Shown here piece by piece: positions 47,700 to 54,669 of a DNA stretch of 64,000 bases. Below the pieces are notes generated by a model. The model was given only the letters and a program-made list of their open reading frames with translations. It was not told where the DNA came from and searched no databases. The stretch spans positions 94,458 to 158,457 of the forward strand of contig JAYPJF010000001.1 in assembly GCA_038128225.1 (NCBI GenBank), given 5' to 3'. Position 1 is the stretch's first letter, and each line of letters starts with the position of its first letter. This DNA comes from a bacterium (GTDB taxonomy: Bacteria > Patescibacteriota > Minisyncoccia > Phycocordibacterales > UBA2100). The translations under genes and the position numbers were made by a program.

Positions 47700-48953
47700 T
47701 CACTCGGCCTTGCAGAAGGCGCGGTACGCTTTTGGAAACAACGGACAAATACTGTGCTCAATGTACTCCGCATCATAAAATCGATGCAATCGTTTGCCAA
47801 TATCTTCATAACATTTTTGCTCAAACTGATGCTCTACAATACTTGGGTCACTACACAAGGCAATCGGTTCGACATATTCATGTCCCGGAGGTCCGTGTTC
47901 AAATAAGCCCCACAGCAAACTCGTGACACAAATTCCTGTAAGTGCAGGTTCTGACAAAGAAAAACATTGCGGTAACTTTTCCTTATATTCATGTGATACA
48001 ACAGTCTGCTGAATAAGCCCTGCGGTTGCAACCGCAAATACCATTTCGGCATGCTCTTTGTCTCGAATTGATTGCGCGACATCCCACAATTCCTCCAAGT
48101 CGCGCCGCGCTATGCCATCGAGTTTTTGTGCATACTCGTAATAACATGCGTGCCGCCATGCCTGAGGTAACGAGTCGCAGGGCCGGAGCGGGTTATCGAT
48201 ATTGTACTCGAATCCATATTCGCCTCCCTCCGCCCAGTTGATGATGACGTTAAAAATGCCTTGTCGGCATTCTTCTTTTTCGCCCGGTTCAGCTTCAGTC
48301 AATTGTTCACATCGCGCCAGAGGCTCTTTCACAAAATACGCGAGATCACCCCATATACTTTCTGGAACCTGTTCAACGCGCGCCAGCATAAACCCGTGCC
48401 CGCTTCCATGGTAACAAATTGCTCGTATGTCCCCCATCTTGTCCTTGAGGCGCGTATTCAAACGTGTGCACACATCAGTCACGAAAGCAGGGTCTGGATT
48501 GTCCTGAATCAAGTGCTCAAGAAACCCATGAAATGCGCCGTATCCGCACGCATCAGCATCATCAGGAAATTCAAGCGCGTCTATATCGGGGTTGTTTAAA
48601 TAAACATTATAGTAGATCGTATCGCCAAGTTTGTGCGCATGCTTGTGACAGCCTGATCCGGCAAATTCATCGTAGGCGTCGTACAGATGCGCAAATGTTT
48701 TTGTCGCCGCGCTAATTCCGGCGCGCTCTACCTCTGTGTCAATGAGGCGGTACCAACATCCCATACGCTCAGATTCCGTCTGGAACTCTGATGCGCACGC
48801 GGCCGCGCGTGCATGCATACGCCACGTAGGGTACTGCATATACGCCCATCCCAAAACTCCTATTCCTGCAATAACCAGGATTCCAATACCAAGCATGCTG
48901 TTCCGTGACATATTCCGTGTCTTATTGCGTAACGAGTATAAGAATGCTAGCAT
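47700..48953 (-). CDS. Hypothetical membrane-anchored Cys/His-rich protein
   Basis: N-terminal transmembrane segment. Recurring GCHKHAHKLGD, ACGYGAFHGF and CYHGSGHGF motifs. About 20 Cys residues. Confidence 0.45.
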   Translation of the reverse strand: MLAFLYSLRNKTRNMSRNSMLGIGILVIAGIGVLGWAYMQYPTWRMHARAAACASEFQTESERMGCWYRLIDTEVERAGISAATKTFAHLYDAYDEFAGSGCHKHAHKLGDTIYYNVYLNNPDIDALEFPDDADACGYGAFHGFLEHLIQDNPDPAFVTDVCTRLNTRLKDKMGDIRAICYHGSGHGFMLARVEQVPESIWGDLAYFVKEPLARCEQLTEAEPGEKEECRQGIFNVIINWAEGGEYGFEYNIDNPLRPCDSLPQAWRHACYYEYAQKLDGIARRDLEELWDVAQSIRDKEHAEMVFAVATAGLIQQTVVSHEYKEKLPQCFSLSEPALTGICVTSLLWGLFEHGPPGHEYVEPIALCSDPSIVEHQFEQKCYEDIGKRLHRFYDAEYIEHSICPLFPKAYRAFCKAE

Positions 48954-49914: not shown

Positions 49915-50757
49915 TCATCGAACAAATACGCTTCTTCCATCAGATGTAAACGTGACCGTTCCATCGACACAAGTATCTTTTATCTCAACTTCGAAACGCT
50001 TAAACACATCGAGTACTTCTTGATGGGGATGTCCGTATCGATTGTCACACCCCCGAGAAACAACCGCGTAGCGCGGAGCAACAAACCCCACGAACAGAGG
50101 CGCCGTGGATGTATGTGAGCCATGATGCCCAGCCTTGAGAACATCACTCTGGAGCGTTTCGCCATCAAGAGCGGCAAGATATTCTTCGACCGAACGCGGC
50201 GCGTCTCCTGTAAATAAAAAAGATACTTCCCCATACACAAGGCGCGCAACTACTGAAGCCGTGTTGGTTTCAAGATCACTCACGTCCCGATCGGGGAAAA
50301 GAATTTCGAGATGCGCTTCTCCGAGATCAATCACCTGCCCGCGTCGCGCAAGCATATAATGCGCGCCTTCAGTCGCGACACTTGCAAGCATCGATTCTGT
50401 TTGCGGCGTTTCGTGTTGTACCCCGGGCTCTAGGATATATGAAACATCATACCGTTTTAATACATCAACGAGCCCACTTACATGGTCCGCGTCTGGATGC
50501 GTTGCGATTACCACATCAATAGTTCGATCGTACCAAGGCATCACCACAGCAAGTTCGCGCAGCACCGAACGATCAGGGCCGCCGTCAATGAGTACCTGCG
50601 CCCCAGTGGGAGATTGAATAAATATGGCGTCCCCTTGTCCTACATCAAGAAACGAAACAATAAGCTCGTTCTGAGAATGCGAGAATTGCGGCGCCCAAAT
50701 ACCAGCCACGCACAAACACAAAAGCGCCGCCGCACCAATCGCAATCTTCGCGCGCAT
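49915..50757 (-). CDS. Stand-alone MBL-fold domain protein of the ComEC C-terminal type
   Basis: N-terminal signal/transmembrane segment. SFLDVGQGDAIFIQSPTGAQVLIDGGPD and VIATHPDADHVSGL. Confidence 0.6.
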   Translation of the reverse strand: MRAKIAIGAAALLCLCVAGIWAPQFSHSQNELIVSFLDVGQGDAIFIQSPTGAQVLIDGGPDRSVLRELAVVMPWYDRTIDVVIATHPDADHVSGLVDVLKRYDVSYILEPGVQHETPQTESMLASVATEGAHYMLARRGQVIDLGEAHLEILFPDRDVSDLETNTASVVARLVYGEVSFLFTGDAPRSVEEYLAALDGETLQSDVLKAGHHGSHTSTAPLFVGFVAPRYAVVSRGCDNRYGHPHQEVLDVFKRFEVEIKDTCVDGTVTFTSDGRSVFVR

Positions 50758-50788
50758 ACCGTAGTATATCGCGTGATATACTCGTTCC

Positions 50789-51403
50789 ATGCACCAGTAC
50801 GAAGCTAAAACGTTTTCAATTCCTGAGCTTACCGGCATTTCCCAAAAACAAATCGACGTGCACCTTGGGCTGTATCAGGGGTATGTGAAAAACATTAACC
50901 TCTTGCGTGAGCAAATCGCCGACCTTACAAAACAAGATGCTGAAAAATACACATTCGCTATTGAAAGCATTCGCCGACGCATGGGGTTTGAGTTTAACGG
51001 CATGCGCATGCACGAATTTTACTTTCCCCAACTCGAAGGGGGGCCGCGCGCATTCGATCTTGATTCCCCACTCGCAACTGCACTCTCAGAAAAGTACGGC
51101 GATTGGAACGCGTGCATCAGTCATCTCAAAAAAGTGGCTCTGAGTCGTGGGAGCGGTTGGTGTTCACTCGTGTGGGACGCTGCCGCACAAACACCTCATG
51201 TGTATTGGACCACCGATCACGAACTCGGTTCGCTTGTTGACGTGAATATCCTTTTTGCGCTCGACATGTGGGAACATGCATACATGGTTGACTATCTCCC
51301 CGCAGAAAAAGCTACACACGTTGATGCGTACCTCGCGAATGTGAACTGGGAAATTGTTGCGCGCCGATTCCCAAAAGAAACATACACGCGTACACAACAA
51401 TAA
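50789..51403 (+). CDS. sodA: Superoxide dismutase, Fe/Mn family
   Basis: DMWEHAYM motif and C-terminal NVNWEIVARRF. Confidence 0.85.
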   Translation: MHQYEAKTFSIPELTGISQKQIDVHLGLYQGYVKNINLLREQIADLTKQDAEKYTFAIESIRRRMGFEFNGMRMHEFYFPQLEGGPRAFDLDSPLATALSEKYGDWNACISHLKKVALSRGSGWCSLVWDAAAQTPHVYWTTDHELGSLVDVNILFALDMWEHAYMVDYLPAEKATHVDAYLANVNWEIVARRFPKETYTRTQQ

Positions 51404-52805
51404 CCCACCAAAATGGAAAAGCAGGGACAGTGATCGCCGCATACGGAAGATGCGCAAAAAACTCCACTACTGAAAGTACGTACGCCAGTACTGTGTACGC
51501 CGGGAACCCCGCGACGACTGCCACAATGCCGCTAAAGAAAATCCCAACGATGCCGCCCAGTATTGAGGCAATCATCGCCACAGGAATCACAGGAAGCACA
51601 AGAATATTTGTAGCCAGCGACACTAAAGATAGCGTTCCCATCTGATACAAAATAAGTGGCAATACAAACAATTGAACCCCCACCGTTGCCGCCACAACCT
51701 CGCGCAGTCCGATTCTCCTTGTGACAAATTGAATTCTACGCTCAACAAGAGGCGCGACGTGAATAAGACCGAATGTCGCCAACACTGAAAGCTGAAAACT
51801 CGGATCATGCAGCACAATCCGCGGGTTGACGAACGCCATCATCGCCGCAACGAAAATAAGTGCCCGAGTAATTGCGTATTTTCTCTCAACCATCGTGGCA
51901 AAAAGCGCTATCACGGCCATCGCTCCCGCGCGCACTCCAGTTGCCGAACCACCGGTCATTGCCACAAAAGCAGCGACAATGATTGCTCCCGTCACAAAGC
52001 GCATACGGATGCCAAAACCAGAAATGAGCGCCAGTACCGCCACCGTAATGAGCGTGATGTTGTACCCCGAAAGCACAACGATATGGGTGAGCCCTGTTAT
52101 TTGAAACTGATCCGAAAGAGTATTCCCCAACGCGCGCTTGTCTCCCACGGTTATTCCTCCCGCAAGCGCCGCATACGGCTCAGAGAGGGCACGCGCGAGA
52201 CCATCGAGATACTTTTGCTTGCCAGCATAAAGCCACCCGCGGATGCCACCCCGCGCATTAGTGTCCACGACTAGTACCTCGGCAAACGAGAGTACGTACC
52301 CGACACCATCTTTGGCAAGATACCCCGGGTAATCAAAAAGTCTTCCGTTCTCGCCCCCGAAAGATTCAGGATACAAGAAAGTGCCCCGCACGCTGATATG
52401 GTCCCCATATGACACTTCGTACAAGCGAGACATGACGACCAGTGCACGCCCAGAGACCTCAACACCTTCTACGACATCAAAACACAGTGTCAGTCTCTCA
52501 CCACTTTCTCTTGTGTCCGGTTCTTGGCATACCGTACCGGAAAGCGTTGCTACTTTTCCAATGTACGGAGAAAGTATCTCGCTGTGTACGGGAGAAACAA
52601 GAGCTGCGCGCCCCACGCCACACGAAAGGAAAACCAGCGCGGTAAAGAAAAGCACGCCCGTTGACTTTTCAGCCGAAAAAAACGCGGCTATGAAAACAAT
52701 GCATGCAAGTAATGCGAGCCACAACGCCGCCACAAGCCCAAACCCATACTCAGCTAAGATGATGCCTATAAAAAAGAAACAACACGATATCCAAAAAAGA
52801 GGCAT
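51312..52805 (-). CDS. ComEC/Rec2-like competence membrane channel domain protein (no MBL domain)
   Basis: Polytopic membrane protein. GLTHIVVLSGYNITLI resembles the ComEC GLSHLLAISGLH block. Its 3' end overlaps the sod 3' end by 92 nt. Confidence 0.55.
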   Translation of the reverse strand: MPLFWISCCFFFIGIILAEYGFGLVAALWLALLACIVFIAAFFSAEKSTGVLFFTALVFLSCGVGRAALVSPVHSEILSPYIGKVATLSGTVCQEPDTRESGERLTLCFDVVEGVEVSGRALVVMSRLYEVSYGDHISVRGTFLYPESFGGENGRLFDYPGYLAKDGVGYVLSFAEVLVVDTNARGGIRGWLYAGKQKYLDGLARALSEPYAALAGGITVGDKRALGNTLSDQFQITGLTHIVVLSGYNITLITVAVLALISGFGIRMRFVTGAIIVAAFVAMTGGSATGVRAGAMAVIALFATMVERKYAITRALIFVAAMMAFVNPRIVLHDPSFQLSVLATFGLIHVAPLVERRIQFVTRRIGLREVVAATVGVQLFVLPLILYQMGTLSLVSLATNILVLPVIPVAMIASILGGIVGIFFSGIVAVVAGFPAYTVLAYVLSVVEFFAHLPYAAITVPAFPFWWVIVVYACMFLLGIGAQQFPSSHSRGTHQRV

Positions 52806-52827
52806 GCTCTAAGCCTATCAAATAAGT

Positions 52828-52852
52828 ACCGGCGGGTGTGACACCCGCCGGT
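52828..52852 (-). terminator. GC-rich hairpin downstream of the small GC-rich ORF
   Basis: ACCGGCGGGTG-tga-CACCCGCCGGT followed by ACTTATTTGATAGG on the minus strand. Confidence 0.4.
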
Positions 52853-52875
52853 TGCGCTTGTGGTCGTGAGCCGAG

Positions 52876-53019
52876 CTAGCCGTCGACGTACTCGATCCGC
52901 CGCGGATCGTCGCCGGGGAGCCGGTCGCTCTCGCCGCGACTGAGACCCGTGTCCGGCGCGCCGAGACCGCGTTCCTTCACGTCGGCGATGGCCGCTTGTG
53001 CGTCGCTCATCCTGGTCAT
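52876..53019 (-). CDS. Small GC-rich ORF (47 aa) with a perfect Shine-Dalgarno sequence; predicted acidic and disordered
   Basis: GAAGGAGGG, 6 nt, then ATG. Peptide MTRMSDAQAAIADVKERGLGAPDTGLSRGESDRLPGDDPRRIEYVDG. Local GC is about 68 % against about 50 % elsewhere. Terminator-like hairpins on both sides. Below the 60 aa threshold of the ORF track. Confidence 0.4.
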   Translation of the reverse strand: MTRMSDAQAAIADVKERGLGAPDTGLSRGESDRLPGDDPRRIEYVDG

Positions 53020-53087
53020 AGTGACCCTCCTTCTATGCTCGCTCCACGATCAAAAACCAGCCGCGAGCGTACTGGTATCTCAGTAAT

Positions 53088-53122
53088 GTAGAAAAATCGG
53101 CCGACCTGTCAAGGTCGGCCGG
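53088..53122 (-). terminator. Intrinsic terminator after the E1-like gene
   Basis: CGGCCGACC-tgtcaa-GGTCGGCCG followed by ATTTTTCTACATT on the minus strand. Confidence 0.6.
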
Positions 53123-53128
53123 CTTCGA

Positions 53129-53809
53129 TTACTGGTCCCACACTTCAAAAACTTCACGCTCAGGCGGTGTGTAGGACCATGCCCGACAGTTTACATACGG
53201 TTCCTGCGAGCCACGTTCAAACATCAGCCACAGCGTCATACGCCACATCATTTCCACTACCACGCGGTCTGAGTTTTCCGGAAGCGGAAACTCGGTCTTG
53301 CACCCCTGAAGCAAGTCTACGGGGTCTGGATGGCGGTGATGATACTGCGGGTTCTCATATTTCTCACAGTGCCAGATGTTGTTGGGATCGAGCCCGTAGG
53401 CTTTCCCCCCGTCAAGTCCAACACGCCCGTCACCAAAGAAAGTCACACCCGGATTCTCGCGCACGCAGGGCCAAACATCTTCGTACCGTGCATAGTTAGA
53501 ATCAACCGCCGAAAAAACGATCCCCCGCAGAGAAGTGCCTCGAGTAAGGCGTCCACGATGCGGTATCACGCGCACATCGGGTCGGATCGCCCGAGCAATG
53601 TCAACAAGCGCGGTAACTTTCAGTTTCCCAACGTATTCTGAAAAATACGCCTGGTTGAACAAGTTTCTTCCCTCAAGAAAATCGTCGTCCCACACATGAA
53701 TCTCTGGCACGCCTTTGCGCACCAGGTTTTGACAGAGCTTACTCCCTAGTGACCCGGCTCCAATTATGTGCACCGGGCGACCGTTTAGCATGTCTGGTGT
53801 GAAAATCAC
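53129..53809 (-). CDS. ThiF/MoeB/E1-like adenylyltransferase superfamily protein (small, no C-terminal CxxC)
   Basis: Rossmann HIIGAGSLGSKLCQNLVRKGV and VWDDDFLEGRNLFNQAYF, the E1 DxDxxExSNLNRQ-type block. 226 aa. Confidence 0.6.
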   Translation of the reverse strand: MIFTPDMLNGRPVHIIGAGSLGSKLCQNLVRKGVPEIHVWDDDFLEGRNLFNQAYFSEYVGKLKVTALVDIARAIRPDVRVIPHRGRLTRGTSLRGIVFSAVDSNYARYEDVWPCVRENPGVTFFGDGRVGLDGGKAYGLDPNNIWHCEKYENPQYHHRHPDPVDLLQGCKTEFPLPENSDRVVVEMMWRMTLWLMFERGSQEPYVNCRAWSYTPPEREVFEVWDQ

Positions 53810-53850: not shown

Positions 53851-53886
53851 AATACAAAAAAAGGAAGAGCGCTTGCGCGCTCTTCA
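53851..53886 (-). terminator. Intrinsic terminator after the 53884 gene, overlapping its stop codon
   Basis: GAAGAGCGC-ttgc-GCGCTCTTC followed by CTTTTTTTGTATT on the minus strand. Confidence 0.65.
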
Positions 53887-54669
53887 CCAAAATTTCGGCC
53901 ACTTCTTTTGAGGAAATGTCTCTCGGTACCACTGTGGGACTTCGCTTCTCTTTACCGTCGGCCACAGCATCATCCGTTGCGGGTCTTGCCCCGCACATTC
54001 AGCGTAACGGACGACTATACTTGCAAGTCGTTCGTATTCATACGTGCGAAACGCGCTCTGAATAGGGTCTCGAGCAGTACCAAGACAACTAGCGTGTCCA
54101 TTCGAGTGTATGCCTGTAGGCGCATGCATTGTGTCCTTTGTGCCAGTTAAATTGTTCCAGCGCACCTCGTCGCGATCAAGCTTAAGCCATATGAGGAACT
54201 GTCCGATTCTGTGCCAGGTCATACATGGCCTCGACCATGGGAAGAGGCCTGTCCTGTAAAACTGTCCGTACAAACATTCCGTTTCAATGCAAATAGCATT
54301 TTCCTCAACAAACACTCTTTTCACTCGTGGGACAGCACACATTTTTCGATACTGCGCGCGCAACTCTTCATAGCTCGGGAGCTTCCAAGCAGGCGCCCGT
54401 TTGACTGTCTCGATCTTTCCCTCAAGTTGGCGAACTACATTTTGGAGGGCCCCTATGCTCTTTATATCCTGACTGTCTATGCGAGGCGTGCGCTCAATCG
54501 CATGCCGCGTTTTGACTAGTTTTTTTTCATGACCGCGCAACTCTGCCTCGAGTATCTCCCTAGCTTGCTTTCGCCTGCGATACAGAAAGGTGACAAAGTC
54601 ATTTTCTTCCTTCCTAATCATTTCACAGCCTCCTTTTCCTATGCTCTGTAAGAGGGTATACGCGCGCAC
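53884..54669 (-). CDS. Hypothetical protein: N-terminal coiled coil plus a C-terminal alpha/beta domain with an H-x-N...C motif (possible E2/UBC-like fold)
   Basis: The secondary-structure pattern (three beta-strands, a loop IHSNGHASCLG, then a helix) resembles the UBC fold. This is speculative. Confidence 0.4.
   Translation of the reverse strand: MRAYTLLQSIGKGGCEMIRKEENDFVTFLYRRRKQAREILEAELRGHEKKLVKTRHAIERTPRIDSQDIKSIGALQNVVRQLEGKIETVKRAPAWKLPSYEELRAQYRKMCAVPRVKRVFVEENAICIETECLYGQFYRTGLFPWSRPCMTWHRIGQFLIWLKLDRDEVRWNNLTGTKDTMHAPTGIHSNGHASCLGTARDPIQSAFRTYEYERLASIVVRYAECAGQDPQRMMLWPTVKRSEVPQWYRETFPQKKWPKFW

Follow-up and report, generated by a model that had tools for sequence, protein, structure and literature searches.

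Results

The small gene and its product

The stretch of DNA analysed here, a 64-kb window of a Candidatus Paceibacterota genome (contig JAYPJF010000001.1), carries on its minus strand a cassette of three genes in the order X - E1 - peptide: a gene for a protein of 245 amino acids (aa), designated protein X (53884..54621, counted from the ATG at 54621; the open reading frame (ORF) extends to a GTG at 54669), a gene for a minimal adenylation enzyme of the E1/ThiF family (226 aa, 53129..53809) and, last, a gene for a small protein of 47 aa (52876..53019), which is supported by the ORF call and by orthologues at the same position. This work is concerned with the small protein, hereafter the peptide, and with the possibility that it is a modifier activated by the neighbouring E1. 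A preliminary description of the locus had recognized the small ORF and its E1-like neighbour; protein X as a third partner (53884..54621) and the promoter-like site described below were not mentioned in it.

The small gene encodes MTRMSDAQAAIADVKERGLGAPDTGLSRGESDRLPGDDPRRIEYVDG (47 aa), with 10 acidic and 7 basic residues, 6 Gly, 3 Pro and a single Gly at the C-terminal end, in agreement with its earlier characterization as an acidic, Gly/Pro/Arg-rich peptide ending in one Gly. It had also been described as a GC-rich island (about 68 %) in surroundings of about 50 % GC, and this contrast was confirmed: the GC content of the gene is 0.70, the mean of the window 0.50. The gene lies inside the sole cluster of 144-nt segments with a GC content >= 0.66 in the 64 kb, and the share of such segments that match its GC content is 0.1 %. 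From the amino acids of the peptide and the window-wide codon usage one would expect a GC content of 0.59 and a GC content at third codon positions (GC3) of 0.50, whereas the observed GC3 is 0.85 (median of the 38 long ORFs of the window: 0.49). The amino acid composition does not fully explain the GC excess of the gene, and RNA structure does not account for its excess GC3. Among the orthologues found in related loci (designated L001 and so on), GC3 is likewise high in L008 (0.82) and ranges from 0.42 to 0.78 in the rest. All orthologous genes are GC-richer than their own loci (0.61-0.70 vs. 0.50-0.61), an enrichment that is partly due to Ala, Gly, Pro and Arg codons.

Expression signals

The start codon of the peptide gene (53017..53019) is preceded by the Shine-Dalgarno (SD) sequence AAGGAGGG (53025..53032, minus strand). 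The AAGGAGGG motif had been noted before, with a spacing of 6 nt that has to be corrected to 5 nt. The two hairpins that had been reported to flank the ORF were both recovered as terminator-like sites on the minus strand. The GC-rich one directly after the E1 gene (53098..53121) has 10 pairs followed by the T-run ATTTTTCT, and its CGGCCG...CGGCCG stem is kept in L008; the one after the peptide gene (52828..52852) resembles an intrinsic terminator, with 11 pairs followed by ACTTATTT, and has equivalents 3' of the peptide gene in L008 and L003. A further terminator-like hairpin (53864..53885, minus strand) directly follows gene X.

Upstream of the peptide gene there is a promoter-like site matching the consensus, TTGACA-16 nt-TACATT (53085..53112, minus strand), which is identical in L008. 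Similar sites, TTGACG-17-TAAAGT and TTGACA-16-TATTCT, occur in L003 and L006, with an expectation of 0.1 in shuffled sequences. The promoter-like site before the gene and the terminator after it suggest that, provided the consensus match is functional, the peptide gene is transcribed on its own.

The -35-like TTGACA sits in the loop of the terminator-like hairpin 3' of the E1 gene (53085..53121), and the order CGGCCG stem, TTGACA, T-run, TACATT is kept in L008. This overlap could couple termination of the E1 transcript to initiation of the peptide transcript.

Conservation of the small gene

A direct protein search with the peptide, which had been proposed earlier as a check, returned only the peptide itself; the k-mer prefilter of the search is blind to a motif of 13 residues. 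Homologues were instead reached via synteny with the E1 gene: relatives of the E1 were found and their contigs were inspected. Every related contig that reached far enough contained a small ORF between the E1 gene and ComEC, and nine distinct Paceibacterota loci with an ORF of 47-57 aa were obtained, eight of them with orthologous sequences and one divergent. The peptides of the window, L001 and L002 (47 aa) end in ...PGDDPRRIEYVDG, that of L008 (49 aa) in ...REDDPRLRTYVDG, those of L003-5 (48 aa) in ...PGDDPRTRKYVDG, that of L009 (48 aa) in ...PADDPRTRKYVDG, those of L006, L007 and L011 (57 aa) in ...PENDPRMRAYLDG, those of L010 and L014 (55 aa) in ...PADDPRTKQYIDG, that of L012 (51 aa) in ...PENDPRTKAYIEG and that of L015 (50 aa) in ...PNDDPRIRSYVEG; the small ORF of the divergent cassette (L020/L021) ends in ...GLDPRVQNHSDG.

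The conserved part of the peptide is its C-terminus of about 13 residues, P-x-[DN]-D-P-R-x-[RK]-x-Y-[VIL]-[DE]-G-stop, in which the terminal Gly is invariant and is followed at once by the stop codon in all loci. The N-terminus is conserved only within subgroups (MTxM..A.AA or MH.TIG), and the middle is of low complexity and fast-evolving; the whole portion before the tail is rich in Ala, Gly, Ser, Pro and Thr and varies in length among the orthologues. Scans of Pfam, NCBIfam and PADLOC gave no match for the peptide. Given its length of 47-57 aa, conservation confined to about 13 C-terminal residues and low complexity elsewhere, the peptide does not have the features of a beta-grasp protein.

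The nucleotide changes between the loci follow the reading frame. Third positions bear most of the variation of the last 13 codons: the extra bases numbered 9 at first, 8 at second and 19 at third positions. Differing synonymous codons are used for Asp, Pro, Arg, Tyr and Gly where these residues are invariant. The coding parts of the window gene and of its L008 orthologue differ by indels of 6, 3 and 3 nt, all of which preserve the frame. Over the whole length of the gene the ratio of nonsynonymous to synonymous substitution rates (dN/dS) was 0.26-0.56 in five pairs, and an SD sequence of the GGAG type was present at the equivalent position in 8 of 8 orthologues. In comparison with dinucleotide shuffles, the ORF with its SD folded like random sequence (z = -0.19). 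A larger region of 341 nt had a z of -3.57, because it includes the two flanking terminator hairpins. No Rfam family was matched in the region of the peptide gene.

Because the frame, the SD sequence and the stop codon are kept, changes are synonymous, dN/dS is below 1 and the ORF folds like its shuffles, we take the ORF to be a protein-coding gene under purifying selection, with a tightly constrained C-terminus. The preliminary description had considered that a structured RNA might have been misread as coding, which would show in homologues that lose the frame and keep base pairing. The opposite was found, a frame kept with in-frame indels only, and with start, SD and stop maintained in nine loci, z = -0.19 and no Rfam match this possibility was rejected. 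The Rfam scan also gave one sub-threshold match, to PtaRNA1 on the plus strand (52804..52859; 20.3 bits vs. a gathering score of 47, E = 0.18), which falls on the terminator hairpin 3' of the peptide gene and is in all likelihood a chance match.

The peptide gene is absent from existing annotation. It is recorded only from Logan assemblies, the NCBI record that has both neighbours omits it, and it was likewise not called on the JGI contigs L003-5.

The E1-type enzyme

The E1 gene is directly upstream of the peptide gene in every locus. Its product matches Pfam ThiF (E = 7.6e-14) from residue 13 on, with the GxGxxG motif starting at residue 17, and, as judged from Pfam and from the AlphaFold2 (AF2) model, consists of the adenylation domain alone: there is no Cys domain, ubiquitin-fold domain (UFD) or rhodanese domain, and no recognition element (RRE) of the kind known from enzymes of peptides that are synthesized on ribosomes and modified after translation (RiPPs). 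The residues invariant among 11 family members are R11, G17, G19, G22, D41, D43, N49, Q53, K64, D103 and C170; as in MoeB and ThiF, these presumably include the ATP- and Mg-binding ones, and the adenylation active site is predicted to be intact. Cys170 is in the predicted crossover-loop region.

The AF2 model of the E1 has a mean predicted local distance difference test score (pLDDT) of 81.5. Foldseek matched it to the PDB structures of Uba4, UBA5, MoeB, ThiF and Cap2 with E values of about 1e-10, and the highest TM-score was obtained with UBA5 (0.69). In a profile-to-sequence search of the PDB the closest solved relatives were Cap2 (1e-9), Uba1 and UBA3, with ThiF, MoeB, UBA5, MccB and PaaA scoring behind them. 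The best NCBIfam match was ThiF (E = 1.7e-16); the E1 is nevertheless below the equivalog cut-offs of NCBIfam, both for ThiF (60.5 vs. 159 bits) and for MoeB (30 vs. 266). The E1-E2 models of PADLOC aligned only with its Rossmann part (residues 6-92).

Protein X

Protein X had no match in Pfam, NCBIfam or PADLOC. In an exhaustive phmmer search of 1.84 billion representative sequences, 124 relatives passed E < 1e-3, and 65 of these had E values below 1e-10. Across the related loci X is conserved along with the E1 (26-38 % identity). The AF2 model, made with an alignment of 73 relatives, is a confident one (pLDDT 94.9) and comprises a helical hairpin at the N-terminus and an alpha/beta domain that carries Cys179. 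Its elements, in this order, are the long hairpin of residues 4-74, one helix, a sheet of six strands (100-157), the loop with Cys179 and four further helices. Conserved across the family are T114, L117, G140, W155, N157, P168, G175, C179, G181, E208 and W220-P221. Of 122 relatives, 118 have Cys179, whereas the family has no invariant His: position 137, for instance, is His in 45 and Arg in 19 of 73 sequences. A conserved Cys without an invariant His is as expected of a thioester carrier and not of a Cys-His hydrolase, and since no His is invariant, the possibility that X is a Cys-His protease or a transglutaminase was set aside.

The surroundings of Cys179 follow the local motif [HQ]-[AG]-P-x-x-[IV]-x3-G-x3-C-x-G, which in distant members reads HAPHV[WF]xxGxxCLG and resembles the E2 motif HPN[IV]xxxGx[IV]CL. 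When X was compared by hhalign with six canonical E2s, the beta3-beta4-HPN-Cys region of the E2s was aligned, though weakly (P = 0.003, and 0.001 with the wider X family; probability 10-20 %), and the reversed control gave P = 0.11; as these comparisons were prompted by the same motif, they are not independent evidence. Searches of PDB sequences with X profiles returned only coiled-coil noise for the full length and nothing credible for the C-terminal domain.

Operons of distant X relatives

More distant members of the family are X-domain proteins of 444-777 aa, in which T114, N157, P168, C179, G181 and E208 are conserved. They are encoded in unannotated operons of metagenomic bacteria (L022 2180..6439; L019 5001..8488; L017 2699..11554) together with a homologous E1, a JAMM-motif protein and ThiS-like beta-grasp proteins. 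Aligned along their entire length with the E1 of the window, the E1s of these operons (226-239 aa) show 26 % identity (E = 5e-19), and the Cys residues coincide. The JAB-like protein has the motif HxHx7SxxD and matches Prok-JAB weakly (E = 0.002-0.03). The beta-grasp proteins end in ...KGN, and L017 has a tandem of two ubiquitin-like proteins (Ubls) with ...LRGN repeats. Judging by their predicted products, these operons are made up like E1/E2/JAB/Ubl operons, except that X takes the place of the E2. Because distant X-domain proteins share operons with a homologous E1, a JAB protein and Ubls, X can be placed in the E2 slot, and from this gene context we regard it as a candidate E2-equivalent thioester carrier. 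The L017 operon encodes further proteins of 757, 496, 309 and 230 aa without a Pfam match.

A divergent cassette was found in the same MscL...SOD synteny as that of the window (L020 447..3602, and L021). It has two tandem X paralogues of 285 aa each and a longer E1 of 326 aa (ThiF E = 5e-4).

The neighbourhood of the cassette

The linkage of X, E1 and peptide was invariant in the loci examined, and in divergent Paceibacterota the cassette is part of a fixed gene order, RecJ, DUF975, RNase H, MscL, X, E1, peptide, ComEC, superoxide dismutase (SOD). Its neighbours are MscL, Band 7, RNase H and ComEC, with ComEC always the next gene downstream. Because the cassette has this fixed place in the core genome, the gene order argues for a housekeeping or regulatory role over that of a mobile defence system. 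In or beside the cassette we found no transporter, leader peptidase or immunity gene in the loci examined, and its neighbours include no PafA/Dop-like gene, nor a CD-NTase (cGAS/DncV-like nucleotidyltransferase), effector or JAB gene. Within about 10 kb there was no rhodanese, cysteine desulfurase, thiamin, molybdenum cofactor (Moco) or tRNA-thiolation gene at any locus.

ComEC is split in this lineage; in the window the DUF4131 and Competence part is at 51312..52805 and the metallo-beta-lactamase (MBL) part at 49915..50838, both on the minus strand. The gene of a Fe/Mn SOD (50789..51403, plus strand) lies between the two halves on the opposite strand. It shares about 92 nt with ComEC, at the 3' end of the latter, and about 50 nt with the beginning of the MBL gene; this gene order is common to L001, L003 and L006. 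Further away, an ORF of 417 aa (47700..48953, minus strand) would encode a Cys/His/Trp-rich protein with an N-terminal hydrophobic segment.

Discussion

The peptide as a probable modifier

We think, with moderate confidence, that the peptide is intrinsically disordered and serves as the activatable modifier in a conjugation cassette of three genes (X - E1 - peptide) in Candidatus Paceibacterota. As in E1-dependent Ubl systems, an invariant Gly is followed by the stop codon in all loci, and an E1 with conserved active-site residues is encoded directly upstream in every one of them. The preliminary description had offered, among several possibilities, that the peptide is a substrate precursor of the adjacent E1-like enzyme, and its constant place directly downstream of the E1 gene together with the constant Gly-stop end lends support to this suggestion.

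We infer the adenylation of the peptide, the thioester relay, the conjugation and any biological role; they might be pictured as follows. The peptide would be made from its own promoter and with a strong SD sequence, with the reactive C-terminal Gly already exposed. A promoter-like site and a terminator of its own are in keeping with a stoichiometric substrate produced in larger amounts than its enzymes. The conserved tail of about 13 residues, P-x-D-D-P-R-x-R-x-Y-V-D-G, would dock in the active site of the E1 in the manner of the ubiquitin tail, and Gly47 would be adenylated by the 226-aa E1 with ATP. The acyl group could then be relayed as a thioester, possibly via Cys170 of the E1, to Cys179 of X, from which the peptide would be passed on to a target amine, be it of a protein or of a different kind of molecule.

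More tentatively, the cassette may represent ubiquitin-like conjugation without the ubiquitin fold, in which a disordered peptide of about 50 aa, a minimal E1 and a new Cys family, X, that has replaced the E2 or diverged from it, derive from operons of the X + JAB + E1 + beta-grasp-Ubl kind. The Paceibacterota cassette has the appearance of a streamlined version of such an operon, one that kept the E1 and X, lacks the beta-grasp Ubl together with the JAB peptidase needed to trim it, and has a disordered peptide where the Ubl would be.

Several observations weigh against the modifier interpretation. Binding and adenylation of the peptide by the E1 are deduced from gene context and sequence. The peptide ends in [DE]-G, not in G-G. 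Neither a deconjugase, JAB or other, nor an E3 is encoded in the cassette, and a reader, for example a proteasome or an unfoldase, is missing from it as well; a JAB peptidase may be dispensable because the Gly is already terminal. Foldseek searches of the PDB and BFVD with the X model found no E2/UBC structure, only coiled-coil or spurious matches with low TM-scores, and X had no signal in Pfam Prok-E2 or UQ_con. Cys170 of the E1 is in a low-confidence loop of the model, beside conserved His residues, and could be a metal ligand instead of a catalytic residue. Finally, a modifier role does not explain the GC3 excess of the peptide gene (0.85 vs. the expected 0.50).

Alternative interpretations

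The peptide could be a precursor of the RiPP type, whose C-terminal or side-chain carboxylate is activated by the E1 to give a free modified peptide, an antibiotic or a signal, through an intramolecular or nucleotide modification like those made by MccB, PaaA, GrcB, EnfB or IndF; X would then be a tailoring or scaffold protein. The cassette resembles MccA/MccB, PaaP/PaaA and the other ThiF-dependent RiPP systems in that a short peptide gene adjoins the gene of a ThiF-family enzyme, and the relatives of the E1 by sequence and structure include MccB, PaaA and AclA. In PMC12596934, conserved motifs at the C-terminus of short precursors are described as the sites at which ThiF-like RiPP enzymes act. 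The enzymes whose domain structure was taken from that review carry an N-terminal RRE or a peptide-clamp domain, their precursors have Asn ends or are modified on side-chain carboxylates, and export and immunity genes accompany them. In contrast, the 226-aa E1 is an adenylation domain with neither RRE nor peptide clamp, the C-terminal residue of the peptide is Gly and not Asn, genes for a transporter, a leader peptidase or immunity are missing from the cassette and from its flanks, and the position between RNase H/MscL and ComEC is a fixed one in the core genome, not that of a variable biosynthetic gene cluster. Moreover, MccB and PaaA rank below the conjugating E1s as relatives, and the relatives of X belong to Ubl/JAB/E1 operons. 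We consider a RiPP unlikely; the earlier proposal of a RiPP or substrate precursor is upheld as regards the substrate, and the strict RiPP has become the less likely half of it.

It is equally doubtful that the peptide acts non-covalently, as a regulator or adaptor of E1/X, of ComEC or of nearby membrane proteins, with its C-terminus serving as a short linear motif. Such a function would agree with the disorder of the peptide, its short conserved motif, its own promoter-like site and terminator, and the constancy of ComEC as the downstream neighbour. What it leaves unexplained is that the motif ends at an invariant Gly-stop in all loci, and that the partners are constant, namely an E1 with its catalytic residues and a Cys protein whose relatives accompany Ubls. 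The preliminary description had also suggested a small regulatory protein: conservation of the coding sequence bears out the small protein gene, and the regulatory role survives only as this alternative, with the terminal Gly not accounted for.

A sulfur carrier appears improbable. In this case the Gly would be adenylated and converted to a thiocarboxylate by a persulfide, perhaps on Cys179 of X, as in ThiS, MoaD, Urm1 and TtuB. The best NCBIfam match of the E1 is indeed ThiF (E = 1.7e-16), its top structural matches include Uba4, MoeB and ThiF, and X has a conserved Cys. The E1 is, however, far under the ThiF equivalog cut-off (60.5 vs. 159 bits) and fails that of MoeB as well, there are no sulfur-transfer or cofactor genes within about 10 kb at any locus, and the peptide, unlike the ThiS/MoaD partners of ThiF/MoeB, is not a beta-grasp protein and ends in D/E-G instead of G-G. 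The relatives of the cassette, with JAB peptidases and tandem Ubls, point to conjugation.

That there is no gene at all, only a GC-rich structured noncoding RNA or a foreign compositional island with a chance ORF, is hardly credible: the folding of the 341-nt region (z = -3.57 against shuffles) and the anomalous GC3 of 0.85 would fit it, against which stand the z of -0.19 for the ORF with its SD, the lack of an Rfam family and the preservation of frame, start, SD, stop and C-terminal motif across otherwise diverged nucleotide sequences.

Implications and comparison with known systems

All E1-activated protein modifiers known to us are beta-grasp proteins. If the peptide is indeed an E1-activated modifier, about 13 tail residues suffice for recognition by an E1, and X represents a new family of Cys enzymes in ubiquitin-like pathways. 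For bacteria of the candidate phyla radiation (CPR/Patescibacteria), whose genomes are tiny and in which few regulatory systems are known, the cassette would provide a post-translational tagging system, and it would mean that a Pup-like tag using E1 chemistry exists in one of the most reduced bacterial lineages. Because the peptide gene was missed by the NCBI annotation and by several gene calls, it would be useful to scan the regions downstream of orphan E1 genes for ORFs ending in ...G-stop, which could uncover more modifiers. A tag of about 13 residues with an activating enzyme of 226 aa might also serve as a ligation tool. In the searchable literature, from which subscription journals are excluded, we found no description of an E1-activated disordered peptide, of the X family, of the X/JAB/E1/Ubl(KGN) operons or of the cassette.

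It is instructive to compare the cassette with the bacterial E1/E2/JAB/Ubl operons (Bil, Bub/6E and types 6a-6e of Iyer et al. 2006; PMC1779556; PMC11601596). As in these, a stand-alone E1 is encoded beside a small protein whose last residue is Gly and a Cys protein in the position of the E2, and the distant relatives of X and of the E1 are found in operons with JAB proteins and beta-grasp Ubls. The cassette differs from them in that its modifier, with 47-57 aa, is too short and too poorly conserved for a beta-grasp, that it has no JAB, that X is matched neither by the Pfam E2 models nor by UBC structures in Foldseek, and that it is located in the core genome and not in a defence island.

Pup, with UBact, is the only disordered bacterial protein tag we know of, and its ligase chemistry is unrelated. 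The peptide shares with Pup/UBact that it is a small disordered protein, proposed to be a covalent tag without the ubiquitin fold, in which only a terminal segment is conserved. Pup ends in GGQ or GGE and is attached through a side-chain carboxylate by PafA, a glutamine-synthetase-like ligase with Dop as its partner, in a proteasome-linked pathway (in part PMC8599861). The peptide, in contrast, ends in Y-[VIL]-[DE]-G and its partner is a ThiF-family E1, with no PafA, Dop or proteasome genes nearby.

The cassette can also be compared with type II CBASS. Cap2 is the best solved sequence relative of the cassette E1 (E = 1e-9) as well as a structural match, and it is an E1-type enzyme that handles an extended C-terminal tail that is not a beta-grasp, as the cassette E1 would. 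Cap2, however, is a fusion of E2 and E1, its substrate is the tail of a CD-NTase and it works with a JAB peptidase, Cap3, whereas the cassette peptide is free-standing, the E1 and X are separate proteins, and there is no CD-NTase or effector. Unlike the peptide, the modifiers of the UFM1-UBA5-UFC1 and ATG8/ATG12-ATG7 systems are eukaryotic beta-grasp proteins, and their E2s have a recognizable UBC fold; what these systems share with the cassette is an E1 that is minimal or non-canonical and has no separate Cys domain, and their modifiers, like the peptide, end in a single Gly after a non-Gly residue.

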